Positions 4,545-39,117 of a stretch of DNA of 64,000 nt are shown one piece after another (position 1 is the first letter of the stretch; the number at the start of each line of letters is the position of its first letter). Source of the stretch: Acidobacteriota bacterium (GTDB lineage Bacteria > Acidobacteriota > UBA4820 > DSQY01); contig JBFMHB010000001.1 of the NCBI GenBank assembly GCA_040752915.1, positions 78,532 through 142,531 of the forward strand. Direction: 5' to 3'. The notes under the pieces were generated by a model, which had not been told where the DNA came from, did no database searches, and was given only the letters and a program-made list of their open reading frames with translations. Position numbers and translations under genes: made by a program.

Positions 4545-5621
4545 ATGACCTTGCCCTGGTACAAGAACGTGCTCGGACTCAGGGGCCCCCAGTCGAAGCG
4601 GCGGGGACGCTACGAACTCCCCGACGAGGCCCGCCTGAGCGAGATCCGCAAACACCCGGTCGGCCCCGAGGGAAAGGAAGCCCCCGACCTGAAGGCCCGC
4701 GCGGGAGAAGCCCCGCCTGGACCCATCGCAGGCCTTCGGGTGGAGGTCCGCACGGCCGCGGGAATGGAGCGCCTCCCCTTCCTGCTCCGCGTTCTGGAGG
4801 AGGAGGGGGCTAGGGCGACCTTCTACATGGGGTTTGGCCCGTGCCGGGCCCACCTCGCGGCGCGCGCCTTTCTGGCCGAGCCTTCCCTCGCTTGGAGGGC
4901 CTGGCGGAGCGGCCTTGTCGGCGCCTACGGGTGGAGGACCGCGGGATCGGGGCTCTTCTCGGCTCCTCCCCTGGCCCTTTCGGCCAGAATCAACGCGGTC
5001 GCCGTGCGGGACGCGGGCCACGAACCTGGCGCCATGCCGTGGGACCACTTTCTGTGGCAGGCGCGGGTCGCGGACATGGATCCGGAGCGGATCGCGCTGG
5101 AACTTGCCCGCGGGGAGGAGGCCTTCATCCAGGTCTTCGGCGCCCCGCCCCACACCATCGGCGCACCCGGATGGATGTGCAGCGACGAAAGCCTCCGGCT
5201 CCAGGACCGCCTTCATCTCCTTTTCGGATCGGACTGCCGGGGCACGGACCCGTTCCTGCCCGTCATCCAGGCTCGGGTGCTGCAGACACCGCAGGTGCCG
5301 GTCACGCTGCCCACGGCGCGGGAGCTCCTTCTGTCGGAGGGCATGGCGCCGGCCTCGGCCTTCGCGCGCCTGGCGGACGAGGCCGCCTCCTCAACCTGGC
5401 CCGTTTACGGAGCCTCCGCCGAACTGGAAGGTGGCCCTTATCTCGAGGACTTTCGCGGCTTTCTCTCCCGCCTTCGGGCCTCCGGAAGGACGGTGGTCGC
5501 TCTTCGCCAGGTTCTCGCGGGGCGCCTGGCCGACGGATCCCCCCTTCCCCGGTGCACCATGGCCTACGGTTGCATGGAAGGTCGCCCCGGGGTCGTGTCC
5601 CTCCAACTCCTCGAGGTGTAG
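4545..5621 (+). CDS. ArnD-like polysaccharide deacetylase (4-deoxy-4-formamido-L-arabinose-phosphoundecaprenol deformylase family); start codon uncertain
   Basis: Blocks shared with E. coli ArnD as I recall it: GLRVEVRT (GLRIDVDT), ATFYMGFGP (ASIFFSVGP), YGWRTAGSG (YGWDILLAG), PWDHFLWQAR (AWDHHAWQAR), APGWMCSDE (AAGWRADQ), FGSDCRGTDPF (YNSDCRGAMPF), QVPVTLPT (QIPVTLPT), ELEGG (EVEG). Confidence 0.65.
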   Translation: MTLPWYKNVLGLRGPQSKRRGRYELPDEARLSEIRKHPVGPEGKEAPDLKARAGEAPPGPIAGLRVEVRTAAGMERLPFLLRVLEEEGARATFYMGFGPCRAHLAARAFLAEPSLAWRAWRSGLVGAYGWRTAGSGLFSAPPLALSARINAVAVRDAGHEPGAMPWDHFLWQARVADMDPERIALELARGEEAFIQVFGAPPHTIGAPGWMCSDESLRLQDRLHLLFGSDCRGTDPFLPVIQARVLQTPQVPVTLPTARELLLSEGMAPASAFARLADEAASSTWPVYGASAELEGGPYLEDFRGFLSRLRASGRTVVALRQVLAGRLADGSPLPRCTMAYGCMEGRPGVVSLQLLEV

Positions 5622-5700
5622 CTGAACGCGCGGACATGGCACGGTCCGGAGACTCCTTCTCCGGCCCAAGGGGCGGTAGGACCGCCGGACGGGGCTGTCG

Positions 5701-8700
5701 ATGGCTGAACCCATGAAAGCAGGACTCCGAGGATACTTCAGAGGGTCACGCCTCCCCGCCTCCTTGGCGGGCCTTGCGGCAGGCGTCTTCCTCCTCGGAG
5801 CCTGCGGGCTCCTATGGGTCGGGTACCTGTCTCCTCGCGTGGAACGGCACCACGCCCAGACCCCACCCGCCTCGCCGGAACACCCGCCGGAGGGAGCCAG
5901 GCTCGAGCGTGCGGCCTTCCTCGCCATCGGATTTCTCCTCTCGGTGACGGGAGGACTCGCCGCGTACCTTCTCGTGAACCGCCAGCGAAGGCTGGAGGCG
6001 CACATCGCGATGGCCGTGCGCGACGCCCGAGAACTGAACGAGAAGCTGGAGGCTCAGCTCGCGGCACGGCGCGAGATGGAGGCGCGCTTCACGGCGTTCA
6101 TGAACCACCTGCCCGGAATGGCCTTCATCCGGGACCCTCAGGGCCGCTATGTTTGGACCAGCGGTGGCTGGTCCCGGGAAACGGGCCTTTCTTCGGAGGA
6201 GGTCTCGGGGCTCTCACCTTCGGCGGTCTTTCCGGACGTGGTGGCCCGGGACTTCCTCGATCTCGACCGGAGGGTCCTGGAGGAGCGCAGGGTGCTCCGA
6301 CAGGAGTTCGCCCTCCCGGGACCGGACGGGTACAAGTTCTGGACGGAGACCGTCTTTCCCATCCCCGTGCCCGGCGGAACCGGACCCCTCGTGGGCGGGA
6401 TCGCTCTCGACATCACGGTCCTCAAGCGAGCCCAGACCGAGCTGAAGGAATCCGAGCGCCGCCACCGCGAGCTCTTCGAAGGAAGCCTCGCGGGCGTCTT
6501 CTCCACCACCGTCGAAGGGGAGATCCTCGCCTGCAACGACGCCCTGGCACGCATGTTCGGCTTGTCCTCGGCGGAGGAAGTAAAAAAGCACTCGGCCTGG
6601 GAAGGGTACTTCGACCTCGACGCGCGCCGGGCCTTCCTCGACGTTCTGCGCGCCTCCGGTTCCGTGGAAGGCCACGAAATGGCCGTCCGCAAGGTGGACG
6701 GCACCAACCTCTGGATCCTCGTGAGCGCCAAACTGGAAAGAGACGCGAGGGATCGCTTGGTCGTGTCCGGAACCGCGGTGGACATCACGGAGCGCAAGCG
6801 CGCCGAGAAGGCGCTTCAGGAATCCGAGGCGTGCTTTCAGGCTTTCCTGGCCCGGGTTCCCGGCGTTGTCTTCATTCGCGACGCGGACGGGCGTTACGTA
6901 TATGTGAACGAAGCCTGGGAGGTCCTGAGCGGACGGCGCGCCGAGGAGGTCCTGGGGAAGACGCCCGCGGACCTCTTCCCCAGTGAAGTGGCTGACCGAA
7001 TCCTCGAGGAGGACGCGCAGACCCTGGCGGGCCGGGTCCAGGTCTGGGAGGAGGAGCCCGAAGAGATCAACGGTCGAACCCGGTACTTCTTCTGCTCCAA
7101 ATTCCCGCTTCCCTGCGGCGAAGGACGCCCCCCGAGGGTGGCGGGCATCAGCATCGACATCACCGACCGCAAGGAGGCCCAGGAGGCCCTCCGCGCCTTC
7201 GTGGACCATATCCCGGGCCCCGCATTCCTCCGCGACGCCGAAGGAAGGTACGTCTACGTGAACGAGGCATGGGAGCGTCTCATGCACCTGGAGAGGTCAC
7301 AAGTATTGGGCAGGACTCCCAGGGACCTCTTCCCGCCCAGCCTGGCGGAACCGATCGAAGAAGAAGATCGAGACGCCCTCGCGGGCCGCCTCCTTGAATG
7401 GCAGGAGGAAGCCCAGGAATTCGATGGCGAGATCCGGTACTTCTCCTGCGCCAAATTTCCCCTCGGAGAGGTCCGCGGTGGAAACCCCCTCGTCGGCGGC
7501 ATTTCGGTGGATGTGACCGACCGGCGGCGGGCCCTGGACGCCCTCCGAGAATCGGAACGCTACTTCCGCGACCTCTTCGAGTGCGCCCACGACCCCATCT
7601 TGATCTTCGATCCCGACACGGAGGTCATCCTGGACGCGAACCAGCGCGCCGTCGAAGTCTACGGCTTCTCCAGGGAAGAGCTGGTGGGGCTTTCCCTGGA
7701 GACGATCACCCTGGACGTTCCTCGGGGGAAGGACGCCATCCGGCGGACCATGGCCGCGGGGGCCTATCTGGATTACCAGACGACGCACAGGCGAAAGGAC
7801 GGCCGTCTTCTGCACATCGAGGCCAACGCGGCGGTCATCTCCTTTCGGGGGCGTCCCGCCATCCTCTCCATCGCCCGGGACGTGACCCGCCGGCGCGAAG
7901 TCGAGCGGGCGCTGGCGGACTCGGAGAGGAGGTACCGCCTCCTCTTCGAAAGGAACCTGGCCGGGGTATACCGGGCGCGCCTGGATGGTTCCCTCATCGA
8001 GTGCAACCAGGCCTTTGCCCGCCTCTTCGGATTCGACTCACCGGAGGAAGCGGTGGCCGCCTCGAATCACCAGTTCACGGCCCGGAGGGAGGATTTCGAG
8101 GCCTTCCGGACGAGGCTCCTTCAGGACGGCGCCGTCACCGACCACGAAGTGCGGACTCGCCGCAAGGACGGCGCCCTCTTCCGCATCCTGGAAAACGCCG
8201 TCCTGGTGCGCGAGCCGGACCAGGAGCCCTACTTCGAGGGCACCCTCATCGACATTACGGGCCAGAGGCGGCGGGCGCAGCTGGAAGCACGCGCCCGGCA
8301 GCTCGAGGCCCTCGGCAAGATCGCCCAGGGACTCGCTCACGAGGTCCGGAATCCTCTCTTCGCCATCCAGGTGAACCTTTCGGCCCTCCGTCGGCTCATC
8401 CAGGCCTCGCCCGAAGGCGAACGGCACGCGGATCTGATGAACGAGAACGTCCAGCGTCTGGACCGCCTCATGCGGACCATGATGGAGTTGAGCCTCTCGG
8501 TGGCGCCCGAGGAGATTGAATCCATTTCCCTCGGCCCCCTCGTGCAACAGGCCGTCCAGGACGCGCGCTCCCAGGAACCCGAGAAGGCCGCGCGGGTGCA
8601 CGTCCACGTGGATCTCCCCCAACCTTCCCCTGCCTTCTGGGCGGCACCCAAGAAGGTCGCCCTGGCCCTATCCCACGTGGTCGCCAATGCGTTGGCCGCC

Positions 8701-8988
8701 TCCCCGGACGGCGATCCGGTGGACCTCCAGGCGCGAGTGAAGGACGGGCAGGTCCACTTTCGCGTCGAAGACAGCGGTCATGGAATCCCGACCTCGGATA
8801 TGGAGCGGATATTCGAGCCCTTCTTTACGACCCGGCAGGGACGTTCCGGCCTGGGGCTGACCCTGGCCCGCCACTACGCTCACATCCACGGGGGATCGCT
8901 CACCGGGCGGAACAACGGCGGCCGCGGGGCCACTTTCGTCCTTCAGATCCCCTTGGATTGCCGCCCTTCCCCGCCGCTGGACGCCTAA
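5701..8988 (+). CDS. Membrane-anchored multi-PAS sensor histidine kinase (about six PAS/PAC repeats, HisKA, HATPase_c); no adjacent response regulator
   Basis: Two N-terminal TM segments. Repeated PAS cores (GMAFIRDPQGRYVWTSGGW, GVVFIRDADGRYVYVNEAWE, GPAFLRDAEGRYVYVNEAWE, etc.) separated by ITERKRAE/ITDRKEA PAC linkers. H-box LAHEVRNPLFAIQ and ATP-lid G-boxes DSGHGIP...GLGLTLA at the C-terminus. Confidence 0.9.
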   Translation: MAEPMKAGLRGYFRGSRLPASLAGLAAGVFLLGACGLLWVGYLSPRVERHHAQTPPASPEHPPEGARLERAAFLAIGFLLSVTGGLAAYLLVNRQRRLEAHIAMAVRDARELNEKLEAQLAARREMEARFTAFMNHLPGMAFIRDPQGRYVWTSGGWSRETGLSSEEVSGLSPSAVFPDVVARDFLDLDRRVLEERRVLRQEFALPGPDGYKFWTETVFPIPVPGGTGPLVGGIALDITVLKRAQTELKESERRHRELFEGSLAGVFSTTVEGEILACNDALARMFGLSSAEEVKKHSAWEGYFDLDARRAFLDVLRASGSVEGHEMAVRKVDGTNLWILVSAKLERDARDRLVVSGTAVDITERKRAEKALQESEACFQAFLARVPGVVFIRDADGRYVYVNEAWEVLSGRRAEEVLGKTPADLFPSEVADRILEEDAQTLAGRVQVWEEEPEEINGRTRYFFCSKFPLPCGEGRPPRVAGISIDITDRKEAQEALRAFVDHIPGPAFLRDAEGRYVYVNEAWERLMHLERSQVLGRTPRDLFPPSLAEPIEEEDRDALAGRLLEWQEEAQEFDGEIRYFSCAKFPLGEVRGGNPLVGGISVDVTDRRRALDALRESERYFRDLFECAHDPILIFDPDTEVILDANQRAVEVYGFSREELVGLSLETITLDVPRGKDAIRRTMAAGAYLDYQTTHRRKDGRLLHIEANAAVISFRGRPAILSIARDVTRRREVERALADSERRYRLLFERNLAGVYRARLDGSLIECNQAFARLFGFDSPEEAVAASNHQFTARREDFEAFRTRLLQDGAVTDHEVRTRRKDGALFRILENAVLVREPDQEPYFEGTLIDITGQRRRAQLEARARQLEALGKIAQGLAHEVRNPLFAIQVNLSALRRLIQASPEGERHADLMNENVQRLDRLMRTMMELSLSVAPEEIESISLGPLVQQAVQDARSQEPEKAARVHVHVDLPQPSPAFWAAPKKVALALSHVVANALAASPDGDPVDLQARVKDGQVHFRVEDSGHGIPTSDMERIFEPFFTTRQGRSGLGLTLARHYAHIHGGSLTGRNNGGRGATFVLQIPLDCRPSPPLDA

Positions 8989-11891
8989 GGGGGCGTCATT
9001 CGCGTGTCCTCCAATCCCCATCCGTTCACGGGGATGCGGAGCAGGCTGCCGGAGCGGTCGCGGACGAGGACGTACCCATCCTGAAGGCCCTTCAGGAAGA
9101 GGCGCCCCGTCAGCGCGACGTCCTGTCTGCAATAGGCTTCGATGAGGTCGAAGCGGCCCTCCCTGAACCAGGCCACCGACTGCACGCCGTCGGCGCTCTT
9201 GCCCTCGCCGAAGTTGGCCTCTCCAAGGGAGGCGAGGGAAACCCGGAAGCCCATCTTCTTCCTCAGAGCCTTCAACAGGTCCAGGGTCTTGACCTTGTGA
9301 AGATCTTGTTCCGTGTAGGGCTGGAGGACCGCCAGGTCGAATCCGTCCACATTGAAGCCCACCACCAGCGGCGCCGCGAGCAGGTCTTCCACGAGCGCGT
9401 CGGCCTCTTCCTCGAAATAGGTCCGCCAACGGTCTCGGTCCAGGTCCCAGGTTACCGCCAGGGCCAGGCGCATGGCCGCTATGTGCCCCCACCCGCCCAC
9501 TTCGGCGGCGAGGCGCTGGGTTTCGAGATCGAAGACCAGTCGCCCGGGAGCTGGGCCAGGGGGGCTCCCCTGCCTTGTCGCGCCGGCCGAGGTGGGGGGC
9601 GTGGTGGGGTGTCCCTCCCCAGGATCCAGGTCCTCCTTCCCCAGGAGGATGGAGCAGACGAGACGCGCCCCTTCCTTGTCGAGCGGCTTGTTGCCGGACC
9701 CGCACTTGGGCGATTGGATGCACCCAGGGCACCCGGTTTCGCAAGGACAATCCCGAAGGAGGTCGGCGGTCGTCTGAAGGAGTTCCTCGAAGACGCCGAA
9801 CCCCTTTCTGCACAGGCCCACCCCGCCCGGATACCCGTCGTAGACAAATACGGCGGGTCCGCCCGTCTGGGGGTGAAGAGGGTAGGATATGCCTCCGAGG
9901 TCCCACCGGTCCGAAAGGGCCCTTAGGGGGAAGATGCCGATGAGGGCATGCTCGAAGGCGTGGATGCCTCCCATGAAATGGAGACCTCTCCCCGCCGCGG
10001 CGGGCTCCGACCCGGGGGGAAGGACCACCCAGAATCCCTCGGTCTCGAAGACGATGGGGGGGGCTTGGAGGGGATGTTCCGACAGGGTCTCCCCTCCACT
10101 CAGGCTCTTCTTCACGTACGAAGTGATGTGCTCCGTGACCTTGAGGCGCCCCAGGAACAGCTCCGCCGGCCCCGTCGTCCGGCGATCCCGGACCTCCAGG
10201 ATTTCGGTTTCCTTGTCTCCCCGAGCCTCGGTGTAGTAGTCCGCATCGGAGATTTTGGCCACCGCCTTCAAGTCCTTGTGCGAGAGGGCCACGATTTCGT
10301 AGCTCTGGCCCTGGTGGAGGTACACCGCTCCGACGTGGCACTCCCGGTGGACTCGAACTCCGTCCACCGTTCCGATGGCCTTTCCCGAGGGATCGACGAT
10401 CCGGTAACTCTCTCCGATTCCCCTGAGGCTCAAGTCGCGGTGGGGCGAGCGATGGAGCGTGTGCCAGGACGTACCCTCCGCATCCAGGACGAGGTCGCCC
10501 GCTTCAGCCAGGTCCTCCAGGACGTGCCGGCGGAGTCCCCCGGCGGCGAACTCCTCCTCCCTCAGGGGTGCCTCGCGCGCCGCGCAGAGGAAGTGGGGAG
10601 GCCAGAGCAAGGGGTTCTCGGGATCGAGAACGGCCTCCTCCAGGGGCCGGTTCAGCAGGCGGTCCGGGTGCGTCACGAAGTACTGGTCCAAGGCGTCGGG
10701 CATGGCGATGAGGAAGACCGCCGCCTCTTCCCCCCCGCGTCCCGCCCGGCCCATGCGCTGAAAAAGGGAGACGAGGGACCCTGGGTACCCCACGAGGACG
10801 CACGCATCGAGCCCGCCCACGTCAATGCCCACCTCCATGGCGGAGGTGCTCACAACCCCTCGGAGGGAGCCGTCGAAAAAGGCGGCCTCGATGCGCCTCC
10901 TTTCGGAGGGGAGGAATCCGGCGCGGTAGGAGGAGACCGTCTTCCGGTAGGACCGGTCTCTCTGGCAGAGCCACGAATACAGAAGTTCGGTGACTCGTCG
11001 GGCCTTGGTGAAGGTGAGTGTCCTCCTCCCCTCCCGTAAAAGACGGTCCATGACCTCCACGGCCAGGGTGTAGGGGCTCCCTTCAGTGGCGAGCAGGTGA
11101 AGACGGCGGGGGGGACGCGGGGCCCCGCTCTCTTCCAGGACGAGGGCCTCCCGCCCGGTGAGGGTTCGAAAAAAGCCGGCGGAATCGGACAGCGTGGCGG
11201 AGGTGGCCACCCACCGTGCGTCGGCGCCCGCACGGTCCAGGACGCGGCCCAACCTCCACAGAAGGTGGTGGACGTTGGCCCCGAAGATGCCACGGTACAC
11301 GTGCGCCTCGTCGAGAACCACCAGAGCCAGGCGCCGGAACCATCCCTCCCAATTCTCCCGGAAGGCCAGGAACGCCAGGTGGAGCATGTCAGGATTCGTG
11401 ATGAGGACGGGCGGCGGGTCCTTTTGGAGGACCTTCCGTTGCGCGCTTCCCGTGTCCCCGTCGTAGACCGCGGCCCGAAACCCGGTCATGCCGAGCGTCT
11501 CCGCAAAGTCGTTGATCTTGGCGCACTGGTCCTGGGCGAGGGCTTTGTACGGGTATAGGAAGAGAAAGCGTCGCGCGGGATTCTCGAGCCAGGCGTGGAG
11601 GGCGTAGAGCTGATATACGAGGCTCTTTCCGCTGGCGGTGGGCGTGCTGACCATGAGATCCCGGCCGGCGAAGAGACCCTGAAGCCCCCGGACCTGGTGG
11701 GAGAAGAGGCTCTTCATCCCCGCACGGGCCAGACCGGCCCGCAGTTCCCCGCGCAAGGCGGCCGGAGGCTCCTCCATGCCCCCCGGTGAGGCGGGGAGGT
11801 CGAAGGTGGCCCTCACGTTCTCTCGAAACCGGGGATCCGAGGCGGGCTCCCAGAGGAAGGAGCGGCAACCGGCGCGGGGCTGGTCGGGCAT
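8985..11891 (-). CDS. Fusion protein: DEAH-box helicase (MrfA/YprA-like) + DUF1998-type Cys4 zinc finger + C-terminal DEDD-family 3'-5' exonuclease domain
   Basis: Helicase motifs I TPTASGKS, II DEAH, III SAT, VI QRMGRAGRGG. DUF1998 metal cluster CPCETGCPGCIQSPKCGSGNKP. The C-terminal ~185 aa carry DnaQ/RNase D-like Exo I (FDLET), Exo II (GFNVDGFDLAVL) and Exo III Y-x3-D (YCRQD) motifs. Convergent 4-nt overlap with the kinase gene. Confidence 0.9.
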   Translation of the reverse strand: MPDQPRAGCRSFLWEPASDPRFRENVRATFDLPASPGGMEEPPAALRGELRAGLARAGMKSLFSHQVRGLQGLFAGRDLMVSTPTASGKSLVYQLYALHAWLENPARRFLFLYPYKALAQDQCAKINDFAETLGMTGFRAAVYDGDTGSAQRKVLQKDPPPVLITNPDMLHLAFLAFRENWEGWFRRLALVVLDEAHVYRGIFGANVHHLLWRLGRVLDRAGADARWVATSATLSDSAGFFRTLTGREALVLEESGAPRPPRRLHLLATEGSPYTLAVEVMDRLLREGRRTLTFTKARRVTELLYSWLCQRDRSYRKTVSSYRAGFLPSERRRIEAAFFDGSLRGVVSTSAMEVGIDVGGLDACVLVGYPGSLVSLFQRMGRAGRGGEEAAVFLIAMPDALDQYFVTHPDRLLNRPLEEAVLDPENPLLWPPHFLCAAREAPLREEEFAAGGLRRHVLEDLAEAGDLVLDAEGTSWHTLHRSPHRDLSLRGIGESYRIVDPSGKAIGTVDGVRVHRECHVGAVYLHQGQSYEIVALSHKDLKAVAKISDADYYTEARGDKETEILEVRDRRTTGPAELFLGRLKVTEHITSYVKKSLSGGETLSEHPLQAPPIVFETEGFWVVLPPGSEPAAAGRGLHFMGGIHAFEHALIGIFPLRALSDRWDLGGISYPLHPQTGGPAVFVYDGYPGGVGLCRKGFGVFEELLQTTADLLRDCPCETGCPGCIQSPKCGSGNKPLDKEGARLVCSILLGKEDLDPGEGHPTTPPTSAGATRQGSPPGPAPGRLVFDLETQRLAAEVGGWGHIAAMRLALAVTWDLDRDRWRTYFEEEADALVEDLLAAPLVVGFNVDGFDLAVLQPYTEQDLHKVKTLDLLKALRKKMGFRVSLASLGEANFGEGKSADGVQSVAWFREGRFDLIEAYCRQDVALTGRLFLKGLQDGYVLVRDRSGSLLRIPVNGWGLEDTRMTPP

Positions 11892-11912
11892 CGGGTTTCC
11901 CGGCCCGAGGGC

Positions 11913-12356
11913 CTACCAGGCCTCTCCGGCCCGGACCTTTCGGAGGTAGAAGATGTCCTTGCGGAGAACGTACCCTTCGCGCTGAAACAGGGCGAGGCTG
12001 GGGCCGTTCCAATCTTCGATCAGGCAGGCGACGATGCCGCGCCCCCGGCTTTCGAAGACCTCCTCGCAGGCGGCGATGAGGCGCGCTCCGAGGCCCATCC
12101 TCCGGAAGGGCGGGGCCACGGCGAGGCGGTTGATCCACCCTTTCCTCCCATCGTCGGTCGCCAGAACCACCCCGGCCAGCGACGCCCCCACAAAGGCCCC
12201 AAGAAGAAGCGTCCCTCCCGAGGCCAGTTCCTCCGCCATCCTCTCGGCCGAATCTCGCCCCTCGGGATGATAGGGCAGCCCCGCCTCGGTCCACAGCCGG
12301 TGGACCGCCGGCACGTCCTTGGGGCCCAGACTCCTGATGACGGGTTCTTCGATCAC
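11913..12356 (-). CDS. GNAT family N-acetyltransferase
   Basis: Acetyl-CoA binding motif RRMGLGARLI and the GNAT fold signature WINRLAV...; 147 aa. 21-nt spacing to the downstream helicase gene. Confidence 0.8.
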   Translation of the reverse strand: MIEEPVIRSLGPKDVPAVHRLWTEAGLPYHPEGRDSAERMAEELASGGTLLLGAFVGASLAGVVLATDDGRKGWINRLAVAPPFRRMGLGARLIAACEEVFESRGRGIVACLIEDWNGPSLALFQREGYVLRKDIFYLRKVRAGEAW

Positions 12357-12372
12357 CGTCCAGCCCTCACGA

Positions 12373-12633
12373 TCACCGCTTCTTCCGGATAAAGGACCGG
12401 ATCGCGCGGCCCTCCTGGAGGAACCCTTCCCACTCGTGCCCCGCGCCCCTGCAAAAAGCCGGGAAATCCGCCTTGACGCCCTGATCGTCCGCCAGAACTT
12501 CGAGCAGCTGGCCCGGCGCCAGGGCCTTCAACGCCTCCGCGGCCCGGACAACGGGGAGAGGGCAAAGAAGGCCCAGGCAATCGAGAAGCGCGTCACCAGA
12601 GCCTGGGTTGGGGATCGGCGCCCCCTTCGTCAT
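12373..12633 (-). CDS. TusA/SirA-like sulfurtransferase family protein
   Basis: DCLGLLCPLPVVRAAEAL contains the conserved CPxP active-site motif of the TusA family; 86 aa. Confidence 0.7.
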   Translation of the reverse strand: MTKGAPIPNPGSGDALLDCLGLLCPLPVVRAAEALKALAPGQLLEVLADDQGVKADFPAFCRGAGHEWEGFLQEGRAIRSFIRKKR

Positions 12634-13693
12634 CGCTCCGGCCCACCTTTCTCTTCGGTCCGGAGGTGTCCTCCTCCTCGGAGGCGCCCGCCGGCCGGAT
12701 GCGGTAGTAGCTTTTTCTCAGGGGGTTGTCCCGCCCCGAAGTGAACGGACCCCCGTTCTCCCCCGCGCGATCCAGCACCGTCAGGCAGTTCTGGACCTTG
12801 GCGTCGAGGTTGTCCAGGTGATGGAAAAAGACGGCCTCCGGGGTCTGCGGGTCCACGGGACTCCCGAATCCCTCGGAGCGTTCCCCCTGGTGGCTCAGGA
12901 CCACGTGAACGAGGTGCCTCCTCTTCTCCGAGGAGAAGCCCGGCAGGGAATCGCAGAGCCGCTCCGCCAGGCGAGCGCCCATGTGAATGTGGCCGAGGAG
13001 CTTTCCGTCTGTGGTGTAATCGAACCCCGGGTCGCTGGAGATTTCCAGGGCTTTCCCCGCATCGTGAAGGAAGCAGGCGCAGAGCAGGAAGTCCACATCC
13101 AGGCCGGGGTAGTTCGGCGCAAGGGCTCTCACGCCCCGGGCGAGGCTCAGGGAGTGCTCCATCAAGCCGCCCACCCAGGCATGGTGGATGGACTTGGCGG
13201 CGGGCGCCCGCCGAAAGGCGGCGAAAATCGGATCCGCCCGGAAAGCCTTCAGGAGCCTGCCCCAATCCCGGTCCTTCATGCGGGAGAGGATCTTGTCGAA
13301 CTCCTCGTCCATCTCGGCGTCGGAGCGACGGCTTCGGGGTGAAAAGAGCCCCGGGTCCGCCTCTTCTCCTTCCAGGGGCTCTACCGCGCCGATGGTGAGC
13401 TGAAGGGCCCCTTGAAACGCGTCCACCCGGGCCCACACCTTCAGGGCGCGCCCGGGCCGGAGAAGGTCCAGGTATTTCTGGACGCGGCCCTTCTTTCCCT
13501 CGAAGCTGTCCCACAGCTTCGAAGGCAGGCTCCCCGATGCGTCTTGAAAAACGCCCTCCCAGTAGGGATCCCCGGATTTCGTTTGGCGGACCTGCCCTGA
13601 GACGAGCCAGAGGACCCCGCGGAACTCGCTTCCTTCGGTGAGCTGGGCCAGGCGCATGGCGTCCATCGGGTCCTCCTCGGGCAGTCTATCCAA
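12593..13693 (-). CDS. OB-fold + HD-domain protein, YhaM-like 3'-5' exoribonuclease family
   Basis: N-terminal OB-fold region (LWLVSGQVRQTKSGDPYWEGVFQDASG...ALKVWARVDAFQGALQL). HD domain with H...HD metal motif (HHAWVGGLMEHSL...CFLHDAGK...GHIHMG). Low-complexity C-terminal tail. Confidence 0.7.
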   Translation of the reverse strand: MDRLPEEDPMDAMRLAQLTEGSEFRGVLWLVSGQVRQTKSGDPYWEGVFQDASGSLPSKLWDSFEGKKGRVQKYLDLLRPGRALKVWARVDAFQGALQLTIGAVEPLEGEEADPGLFSPRSRRSDAEMDEEFDKILSRMKDRDWGRLLKAFRADPIFAAFRRAPAAKSIHHAWVGGLMEHSLSLARGVRALAPNYPGLDVDFLLCACFLHDAGKALEISSDPGFDYTTDGKLLGHIHMGARLAERLCDSLPGFSSEKRRHLVHVVLSHQGERSEGFGSPVDPQTPEAVFFHHLDNLDAKVQNCLTVLDRAGENGGPFTSGRDNPLRKSYYRIRPAGASEEEDTSGPKRKVGRSDDEGGADPQPRLW

Positions 13694-13915
13694 GGGACGC
13701 CGGACGTGGCAAGGAGAGCCAGAGGCTTTCGAGGGAAATCACCGAGAACGGGGAGCCGCGTGGGGCCGGTCCCTATTTCGCGATCTGGTTCCCCATTTCC
13801 CGTTCCCTCGGCCACCTGGACTCGCGGTTTCACGGGTCCTTCTCCTTCCTCCCCCCTCCCGAGAAGGGCCGCTTCTTCTGTTGCCAGTCCCGCCGTGCCG
13901 ACCCATAATGACCCC

Positions 13916-27755: not shown

Positions 27756-27831
27756 GCGGGCGTAGCTCAGTCGGTAGAGCGCGAGCTTCCCAAGCTTGAG
27801 GTCGCGGGTTCGAGACCCGTCGCCCGCTCCA
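27756..27831 (+). tRNA. tRNA-Gly (anticodon CCC)
   Basis: Manually folded cloverleaf: acceptor GCGGGCG/CGCCCGC, D-arm GCTC-AGTCGGT-AGAGC, anticodon stem CGAGC/GCTTG with loop TTCCCAA (U33-CCC-A37), T-arm GCGGG-TTCGAGA-CCCGT, discriminator U73, encoded CCA. Confidence 0.85.
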
Positions 27832-39041: not shown

Positions 39042-39117
39042 GGGCCATTAGCTCAACCGGTAGAGCAGGGGACTCTTAATCCCAAGGTTGTAGGTTCGAG
39101 TCCTACATGGCCCACCA
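39042..39117 (+). tRNA. tRNA-Lys (anticodon CTT)
   Basis: Manually folded: acceptor GGGCCAT/ATGGCCC, D-arm GCTC-AACCGGTA-GAGC, anticodon loop CTCTTAA (U33-CUU-A37), T-arm GTAGG-TTCGAGT-CCTAC, discriminator A73, encoded CCA. Confidence 0.85.

Follow-up and report, generated by a model that had tools for sequence, protein, structure and literature searches.

The window analysed here, a 64-kb stretch of DNA, belongs to an Acidobacteriota genome of the Thermoanaerobaculia type and harbours four co-directional genes on the minus strand, whose coordinates had been given in an original prediction and are all confirmed by the list of open reading frames (ORFs). In the direction of transcription these genes code for a homologue of the YhaM family of 3'-5' exoribonucleases with an OB fold and an HD domain (12593-13693, 366 aa when read from TTG), a TusA-like sulfur-carrier protein with a CPLP motif (12373-12633, 86 aa; Pfam TusA, 7e-20), a GNAT acetyltransferase (11913-12356, 147 aa; Pfam Acetyltransf_1, 1e-12) and a single-chain helicase-exonuclease (8985-11891, 968 aa), in which Pfam, the structure 6znp and the homologues identify an SF2 helicase of the MrfA/YprA type and a DEDDy 3'-5' exonuclease. 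The helicase-exonuclease gene is an ordinary chromosomal gene of its genome, and when the window was scanned for Rfam families and tRNAs, only two tRNAs turned up, both distant from the locus.

The gene junctions are tight. The HD and TusA genes overlap by 41 nt, the TusA and GNAT genes are separated by 16 nt and the GNAT and helicase genes by 21 nt, and a sequence scan of all three junctions found nothing resembling a terminator. Upstream of the HD gene, a sigma-70-like site on the minus strand (13683-13712; TTGCCA, 18-nt spacer, TAGACT), defined by a consensus match only (9 of 12 positions), is a possible promoter of the co-directional cluster. The YhaM-like, TusA-like and GNAT genes are probably co-transcribed with the helicase gene in this genome.

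The HD protein aligns collinearly with the solved YhaM structure 9h3f over aa 37-310 (E = 7.6e-33), and a Pfam scan identifies a tRNA_anti-codon OB fold and an HD domain. It scores 118 bits against PRK13480, below the equivalog cut-off of 460, and therefore is a member of the YhaM family and at most a candidate functional equivalent. The more probable translation start is ATG 13666 (357 aa) and not TTG 13693 (366 aa), since a 100% identical protein at NCBI (P0121) has 357 aa and the promoter-like site (13712-13683) fits the ATG start. A single HD-TusA protein (P0169) was considered as Rosetta-stone evidence and rejected: on its contig the helicase and an ABC permease are split as well, and indel errors explain the apparent fusion. 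The GNAT protein reaches 59.6 bits with PRK03624, beneath the cut-off; it is a neighbour of the helicase rather than an established partner.

All the motifs that had been read from the 968-aa protein (TPTASGKS, DEAH, SAT, QRMGRAGRGG, the Cys4 cluster, FDLET, GFNVDGFDLAVL and YCRQD) are present in the translation. The helicase body (aa 13-750; 9642-11855, minus strand) comprises an N-terminal region, RecA1, RecA2, a winged helix, OB-CON and an MZB/DUF1998 domain with the Cys4 cluster. The Pfam search proposed for this protein retrieved DEAD (2e-26), Helicase_C (7e-15), WHD_HRQ1 and MZB/DUF1998 (PF09369; aa 646-725, 2e-22), and Pfam and the translation together identify the DExH core motifs I, II, III and VI. 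The predicted MrfA/YprA architecture is firmly supported by a full-length collinear alignment with Bacillus subtilis MrfA (6znp; query residues 13-727 with MrfA residues 8-732, 405 bits, E = 6e-120). The four cysteines C715, C717, C721 and C724 do not vary across 17 sequences. TIGR03817 matches aa 31-750 with 665 bits, short of its equivalog cut-off of 874. Within the YprA/MrfA family, 3'-5' DNA helicase and DNA-dependent ATPase activities are known only for MrfA and SftH.

A linker rich in Pro, Gly and Ala, delimited by spacing and composition (about aa 751-785; 9537-9641, minus strand), joins the MZB domain to the C-terminal exonuclease domain (aa 786-968; 8988-9536, minus strand). In this protein 52 aa separate the Cys-cluster motif from Exo I; in 77 loci the interval is 45-251 aa and likewise rich in Pro and Ala. 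The C-terminal domain has an RNase H-like exonuclease fold and a complete DEDDy set, consisting of Exo I (DxE), Exo II (D) and Exo III (Yx3D); the claim that a genuine DEDD 3'-5' exonuclease had been added to the helicase is hence borne out by motifs and fold alike. Of the catalytic residues, D788, E790, D852 and Y920 show no variation among 75 species, D924 is kept in 74 of the 75, and N847 is conserved; the catalytic residues are likewise retained in 121 close homologues. The family model PF13482 falls slightly below threshold in the full-length scan (21.4 bits, cut-off 22) and exceeds it when the exonuclease domain is scanned alone (26 bits), where 11 of 11 members match.

The fusion is common. 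The best 120 homologues, which span 792-1042 aa and nearly all fall between 920 and 1040 aa (full-length ones, 940-1040 aa), repeat the single-ORF architecture, and helicase and exonuclease share one frame at 70 of 80 species-level genome loci. The fusion-bearing metagenome-assembled genomes carry labels that include Acidobacteriota, Thermodesulfobacteriota/Deltaproteobacteria and NC10/Methylomirabilales, as well as Kuenenia, Firestonebacteria, Opitutales and others. The 968-aa protein is one ordinary example of a helicase-exonuclease family that is widespread and has been catalogued before, and the novelty implied by the original prediction is not supported.

The exonuclease belongs to a sister subfamily within PF13482, which is nearer to PolA/PolB proofreading domains, and is not an orthologue of MrfB. 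MrfB is a DEDDh exonuclease with a C-terminal TPR domain and an N-terminal extension that binds MrfA. In place of the general base His258 of the DEDDh set, a tyrosine occupies the equivalent position, three residues before the final Asp, in all 75 species; the protein stops about 10 aa past the exonuclease fold and has neither the TPR domain nor the N-terminal MrfA-binding extension, and the Pfam scan of the 968-aa protein returned no TPR match. Searches of PDB sequences with the 211-aa C-terminus (phmmer), an 11-sequence profile and a 75-species profile did not match the MrfB structure 8un9 and recovered nothing beyond faint signals from Pol II, Pol delta, T7 polymerase and NrnC/diDNase. By structure comparison, many other DEDD enzymes are as near to the domain as MrfB is. 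The designation "MrfB-like" is therefore appropriate for the role of the domain, but not for its descent, since the domain is DEDDy and its sequence is not detectably similar to MrfB.

Bacteria use this exonuclease module in further architectures as well, namely fusions with Gp157 domains and unannotated extensions. Its IMG/VR relatives are proofreading domains of phage family-A polymerases; broadening of the profile with these relatives was abandoned, because they would draw the profile away from MrfB. Among isolated phage genomes the domain found no match at E <= 1e-5. We take YprB itself to be a PF13482 member, in line with InterPro and with a published survey of the family. In that survey, Majorek et al. 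2014 (PMC3985635), the COG3359/PF13482 cluster is followed by TPR repeats, and the cluster associated with DEAD/DEAH helicases is separate. As profile matches to MrfB and any special structural closeness are lacking, the two systems may have independent origins and act differently. We tentatively raise the possibility, which we hold to be the less probable one, that a YprA helicase independently captured a mobile DEDDy module, rather than that adjacent mrfA and mrfB genes were joined. If so, the captured module would be a relative of phage PolA proofreading domains that bacteria also carry as a fusion with Gp157-type domains. Recruitment of 3'-5' exonucleases by YprA helicases would then have happened on two or more occasions, and the substrate or pathway of the fused clade might differ from the excision of mitomycin adducts.

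Could the fusion be an artefact, two adjacent genes joined by an error in sequencing or assembly? A related contig (L093) does carry frameshifts, which split the helicase into two ORFs and merge the HD with the TusA gene. Yet the frame is uninterrupted in the window, and a frameshift artefact is excluded because the one-ORF architecture recurs in 120 homologues, each an independent cluster representative, and also in species-level genomes, of which 70 or more have it. Moreover, relatives without the exonuclease (Actinomycetota, Dehalococcoidia) stop 17-46 aa past the Cys cluster, and an exonuclease profile found no separate exonuclease gene in the flanks of these helicases (L080-L088). An error of this kind is exceedingly improbable. 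The interpretation of the four genes as a dedicated nucleic-acid processing module fails on the comparison of loci. HD, TusA and GNAT genes flank the helicase gene only at L001, L003, L008 and L009 (and at the duplicate places L002 and L004), all from close Thermoanaerobaculia-type relatives with a helicase identity of at least 64%, and in the comparison the remaining 71 fusion loci lack all three partners. Across 75 loci, the most recurrent neighbour family of the fusion gene occurs in only 9, all of the Desulfobacterota type. The four-gene "module" is lineage synteny, and there is no conserved helicase system to which the upstream genes belong. It is unlikely, albeit less so than an assembly error, that the four genes nevertheless form a true functional unit within the Thermoanaerobaculia lineage and share a nucleic-acid substrate, perhaps in the processing of 3' ends of RNA or R-loops, or with modification-coupled regulation. 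No fewer than 5 distinct genomes keep the co-directional order, with identities as low as 64% for the helicase and 58% for the HD protein and with a variable downstream flank; and the tight spacing, the overlap, the single upstream promoter-like site and the absence of junction terminators make co-transcription with a 3'-5' exoribonuclease homologue possible, and with it a local functional link. However, the same loci share an unrelated divergent upstream Fer4-ABC-patatin block, which is equally well conserved, a pattern predicted by synteny through descent. The genes also come apart: HD with TusA, HD with GNAT and HD alone all occur without the helicase, as L089 retains HD and TusA at the same locus but lacks GNAT and the helicase, and L090 has HD and GNAT only.

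Regarding function, the original prediction had offered interstrand crosslink repair or defence, neither of which the evidence favours. In favour of an anti-phage helicase-nuclease related to DISARM DrmA/B, Druantia DruE or Dpd, the protein shares the YprA-family core and the DUF1998/MZB domain with defence helicases, and PADLOC reports partial matches to BrxH, DruE, DpdF and DrmA models. These matches are confined to the generic RecA core, the best scoring 145 bits as compared to 405 bits over the full length of MrfA, and the three partner genes are unmatched. Neither a full-length match to a defence helicase model nor the system partners that mark defence YprA proteins (DISARM, Druantia, Dpd, ARMADA), among them DrmB/C, a methyltransferase, a PLD or Vsr nuclease, DruA-D and Dpd genes, were found, there is no methyltransferase, PLD or other defence partner nearby, and the neighbours are housekeeping genes that differ between species. 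Bell et al. assign the clades that have MrfB as an associated or fused partner to a DNA-repair branch, apart from the defence branch (10.1101/2025.09.15.676423). Thus nothing supports a defence role, which we judge very improbable. As to crosslinks, the MrfAB study (10.1101/426304) argues against inter-strand crosslink repair and in favour of mono-adducts or intra-strand lesions.

Overall, we consider it likely that gene 8985-11891 encodes a single-chain version of the MrfA helicase and 3'-5' exonuclease pair, and that the upstream genes are lineage-specific neighbours. By analogy to B. subtilis, where MrfA is a 3'-5' helicase and MrfB a 3'-5' DNA exonuclease, the protein most likely performs a single-chain, MrfAB-like excision repair, with DNA as the putative substrate and the same presumed polarity. 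The SF2 motor would move 3'->5' on single-stranded DNA beneath an OB-CON-MZB "canopy" and unwind the lesion-bearing strand, which the DEDDy exonuclease, held on a flexible Pro/Ala-rich tether, would degrade from a free 3' end. The covalent tether would stand in for the N-terminal peptide and the TPR domain of MrfB in the two-protein system. According to Burby & Simmons (10.1101/426304), conservation of MrfAB function does not reach beyond close relatives, and hence a mitomycin-type adduct substrate transfers only weakly to the fused clade. We found no biochemical or genetic study of any member of this clade in the literature.

As a discovery the architecture carries little weight, for it is common, listed in domain catalogues and mentioned in the MrfAB/YprA literature. 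The fused clade is large and includes cultured Desulfovibrionales, for instance Pseudodesulfovibrio pelocollis SB368 and Maridesulfovibrio sp. FT414 (loci L037 and L055), which would make a convenient single-polypeptide system for the handover of DNA from an MrfA-type motor to an exonuclease. Furthermore, the DEDDy, non-orthologous exonuclease calls for caution in annotating these proteins as "MrfAB fusions" with a function in mitomycin repair.

Among known systems, the helicase part resembles B. subtilis MrfA (YprA) from the N-terminal region through RecA1, RecA2, WH and OB-CON to MZB over about 715 aligned residues, and the protein as a whole resembles MrfA plus MrfB (YprB), the pair that carries out mitomycin-C excision repair, in coupling this helicase to a metal-dependent DEDD 3'-5' exonuclease of PF13482. 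Both exonucleases are structurally closest to PolB proofreading domains and share the spacing from general base to Asp (H258-x3-D262 in MrfB, Y920-x3-D924 here). The fused MrfA-MrfB or YprA-YprB proteins noted in the literature (10.1101/426304; 10.1101/2025.09.15.676423; cluster F.14 in PMC3985635) have the same architecture with a C-terminal PF13482 domain and appear there as an architecture only, uncharacterised; matched by this description, the 968-aa protein almost certainly falls into the same class. Other helicase-exonucleases are built differently. WRN is a RecQ helicase that lacks MZB/DUF1998 and bears its DEDDy exonuclease at the N-terminus, in contrast to the C-terminal exonuclease described here, and Staphylococcus aureus DinG combines an N-terminal DEDD exonuclease with an XPD-like SF2 helicase of 5'-3' polarity, also without MZB/DUF1998. 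Finally, Mycobacterium smegmatis SftH and the actinobacterial "YprA only" proteins of TIGR03817 belong to the same helicase family, yet these Actinomycetota relatives end right after the Cys cluster, with neither an exonuclease domain nor a matching adjacent gene, where the protein of the window continues into its own exonuclease.

The four open reading frames lie on the minus strand exactly where the original prediction had placed them, its quoted motifs are all found in the translations, and each of its domain assignments is upheld by Pfam and NCBIfam. The outermost gene (12593-13693) codes for a YhaM-like protein of 366 aa, which combines an OB fold with an HD domain and matches the solved YhaM structure 9h3f (E = 7.6e-33). 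It is followed by a TusA-family gene with a CPLP motif (12373-12633; 86 aa; Pfam 7e-20), a GNAT gene (11913-12356; 147 aa; Pfam 1e-12) and the fusion gene (8985-11891), whose 968-aa product harbours the Pfam domains DEAD, Helicase_C, WHD_HRQ1 and MZB/DUF1998. Residues 13-727 of this protein are collinear with 6znp, the structure of the Bacillus subtilis helicase MrfA (E = 6e-120). As read from the sequence, the HD and TusA genes overlap by 41 nt, and gaps of 16 nt and 21 nt separate TusA from GNAT and GNAT from the helicase, respectively. The HD gene probably starts at ATG 13666 (357 aa) rather than at TTG 13693, because the identical NCBI protein (P0121, labelled Acidobacteriota) comprises 357 aa, and a sigma-70-like -35/-10 match on the minus strand (13712-13683) lies just upstream of that ATG.

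A gene for a 1095-aa multi-PAS histidine kinase (5701-8988, plus strand) converges on the helicase gene, and their ends overlap by 4 nt at the helicase stop codon. The related loci L001/L002 also have this convergent kinase, and other genes take its place in L003 and L008. An Rfam/ARAGORN scan of the window yielded only two tRNAs, tRNA-Gly(CCC) and tRNA-Lys(CTT) (27756-27831 and 39042-39117, plus strand), and no other RNA family at the gathering threshold.

The C-terminal domain of the fusion protein (8988-9536) is a real DEDD exonuclease, as judged by conservation, Pfam matches of the isolated domain and structure prediction. In a scan of the full-length protein the domain stays below threshold for PF13482 (21.4 bits, cut-off 22) and PF10108, and in isolation it passes the PF13482 threshold with 26 bits. 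Among 11 diverse members of the domain, PF13482 is matched by all 11, PF10108 by 10 and PF01612 by 7. The residues D788, E790, N847, D852 and Y920 are invariant in 121 homologues and, separately, in 75 species-level genomes, 74 of which also retain D924; the catalytic set is thus complete DEDDy, with Exo I (DxE), Exo II and Exo III (Y-x3-D). The AlphaFold2 model is confident (pLDDT 89.2, pTM 0.86), and hence the predicted exonuclease has gained both a profile match and a fold.

The helicase-exonuclease fusion itself is real, since almost all of the best 120 homologues share the architecture at a length of 920-1040 aa, and of 80 loci recovered by scanning a single genome for each species, 70 encode helicase and exonuclease in a single reading frame. 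The titles of fused loci range from Acidobacteriota/Thermoanaerobaculia and many Thermodesulfobacteriota/Deltaproteobacteria to NC10/Methylomirabilales, Candidatus Kuenenia, Firestonebacteria, Opitutales and others; cultured carriers include Pseudodesulfovibrio pelocollis and Maridesulfovibrio sp. FT414. Relatives from Actinomycetota and Dehalococcoidia end 17-46 aa past the Cys cluster, and their flanks contain no separate gene matching the exonuclease profile. The Cys cluster is joined to Exo I by a linker of 45-251 aa that is rich in Pro and Ala, a composition as expected of a putative flexible tether.

The original prediction further suggested that the four genes form a dedicated nucleic acid-processing module. 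Tight spacing, the single upstream promoter-like site and the lack of terminator-like sites at the gene junctions make co-transcription plausible in the window genome, yet this is no sign of a conserved machine. The order HD-TusA-GNAT-helicase recurs at helicase identities as low as 64%: in L009, the nearest genome locus (88% identity, titled “uncultured Thermoanaerobaculia bacterium”), in L001/L002, L003/L004 and L008. The frameshifted locus L093 has it as well. All order-bearing loci with upstream gene calls also share a divergent, unrelated ferredoxin-ABC-patatin block, and their downstream flanks differ; this pattern is synteny by descent. At 57% identity or below, HD, TusA and GNAT are absent from 71 distinct fusion loci, including L007, L010, L005 and other Thermoanaerobaculia. 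The linkage is thus confined to relatives with at least 64% helicase identity, and when the three ORFs flanking the fusion gene on either side were clustered across 75 loci, no neighbour family appeared in more than 9.

Conversely, parts of the trio occur without the helicase: L089 (5001-6297) carries overlapping HD and TusA genes beside the same ferredoxin-ABC-patatin block without GNAT, L090 (5001-6538) only overlapping HD and GNAT genes, and L091 and L092 HD alone. Accordingly, if TusA or GNAT has a functional partner, it would be the YhaM-like nuclease and not the helicase. A single 381-aa HD-TusA protein (P0169) was dismissed as an indel artefact, since on its contig (L093; ena:ERZ25039477 contig_52744, 5001-9541) the helicase is also broken into ORFs of 351 and 541 aa and an ABC2 permease into two.

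The most recurrent neighbour, in 9 of 75 loci, all Desulfobacterota-type (L023, L028, L030, L040, L046, L053, L054, L056, L062), is a protein of about 600 aa encoded on the opposite strand in the upstream ORF u1, which looks like lineage synteny. In one lineage with a 50% identical fusion gene (L005, 9042-11346; L006, 6988-9292), genes for a PatA_N-domain protein and an NYN/YacP-like nuclease come after it in the same orientation.

A role in defence, also considered initially, is unsupported. Matches to PADLOC models (BrxH, DruE, DpdF, DrmA and others) are limited to the generic RecA core (best 145 bits, versus 405 bits for the full-length MrfA match), and HD, TusA and GNAT match no PADLOC model. 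The four genes are surrounded by genes for the PAS histidine kinase, a ferredoxin, ABC transporters and a patatin-like protein, and the vicinity of the fusion gene contains neither a methyltransferase nor a PLD nor any other defence partner. The suggested repair of inter-strand crosslinks is not the best analogy either, because Burby & Simmons (10.1101/426304) report data against such a role of MrfAB. They also describe MrfAB function as conserved among close relatives only, and thus any transfer of its substrate to the fusion protein would be weak. The model published for MrfAB has the helicase peel off the strand that bears the adduct, which the exonuclease degrades; in an AlphaFold-Multimer prediction the free 3' DNA end comes to lie close to the MrfB active site. 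Judged by its homology to MrfA and SftH, the fusion protein's motor would translocate 3'-5' on ssDNA under an OB-CON-MZB canopy, and the covalent Pro/Ala-rich tether might assume the role of the MrfB N-terminal peptide, holding the exonuclease close to the 3' end as it emerges.

An exhaustive profile search found the exonuclease module in 3,800 representative clusters, 497 of them at E <= 1e-30; the helicase fusions among the carriers include many 5'-truncated fragments. In P0313 and P0318 the module forms the N-terminus of proteins that also carry a Siphovirus Gp157 domain; P0313, encoded among chromosomal housekeeping genes in L124, matches the domain of the window at 46% identity. In P0346, P0356 and P0372 the module precedes unannotated extensions of 300-400 aa. 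Isolated phage genomes gave no match to the domain, and viral relatives from IMG/VR (L094-L123) share 26-34% identity with it overall. Four of these relatives were checked: two form the N-terminal proofreading part of phage family-A DNA polymerases, and the other two are short PF13482 proteins; most other extended ORFs are polymerase-like in size and layout. The exonuclease behaves like a mobile DEDDy module and not like a dedicated MrfB, and these other architectures and phage polymerase relatives suggest that the helicase may have captured such a module instead of fusing with an MrfB gene.

Overall, the initial interpretation holds in part, for the architecture, and is wrong as regards novelty, the module and the roles in defence and crosslink repair. 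In any detectable sense, the exonuclease domain is not an MrfB orthologue: profiles of 11 and of 75 domain sequences did not find the MrfB structure 8un9, the general base is a Tyr rather than His258, and the TPR domain and N-terminal MrfA-binding extension of MrfB are absent. The spacing is equal (H258-x3-D262 and Y920-x3-D924), and according to the MrfB authors MrfB most closely resembles PolB-type DEDDy domains, as does the fusion exonuclease. Nor is the fusion new, contrary to what was implied initially. Fused MrfA-MrfB (YprA-YprB) proteins have been noted by Burby & Simmons and by Bell et al. 2025 (10.1101/2025.09.15.676423), who assign the clade with an associated or fused MrfB to the DNA-repair branch, and Majorek et al. 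2014 (PMC3985635) list PF13482 members in one cluster of DEAD/DEAH-box helicases and T7 polymerases, which the phage family-A polymerase relatives fit, and a separate COG3359 cluster, frequently followed by Tetratricopeptide repeats, which we read as the MrfB architecture. The observation is confirmed; its significance is low, and the fusion protein is a further example of an already catalogued, uncharacterised helicase-exonuclease class.
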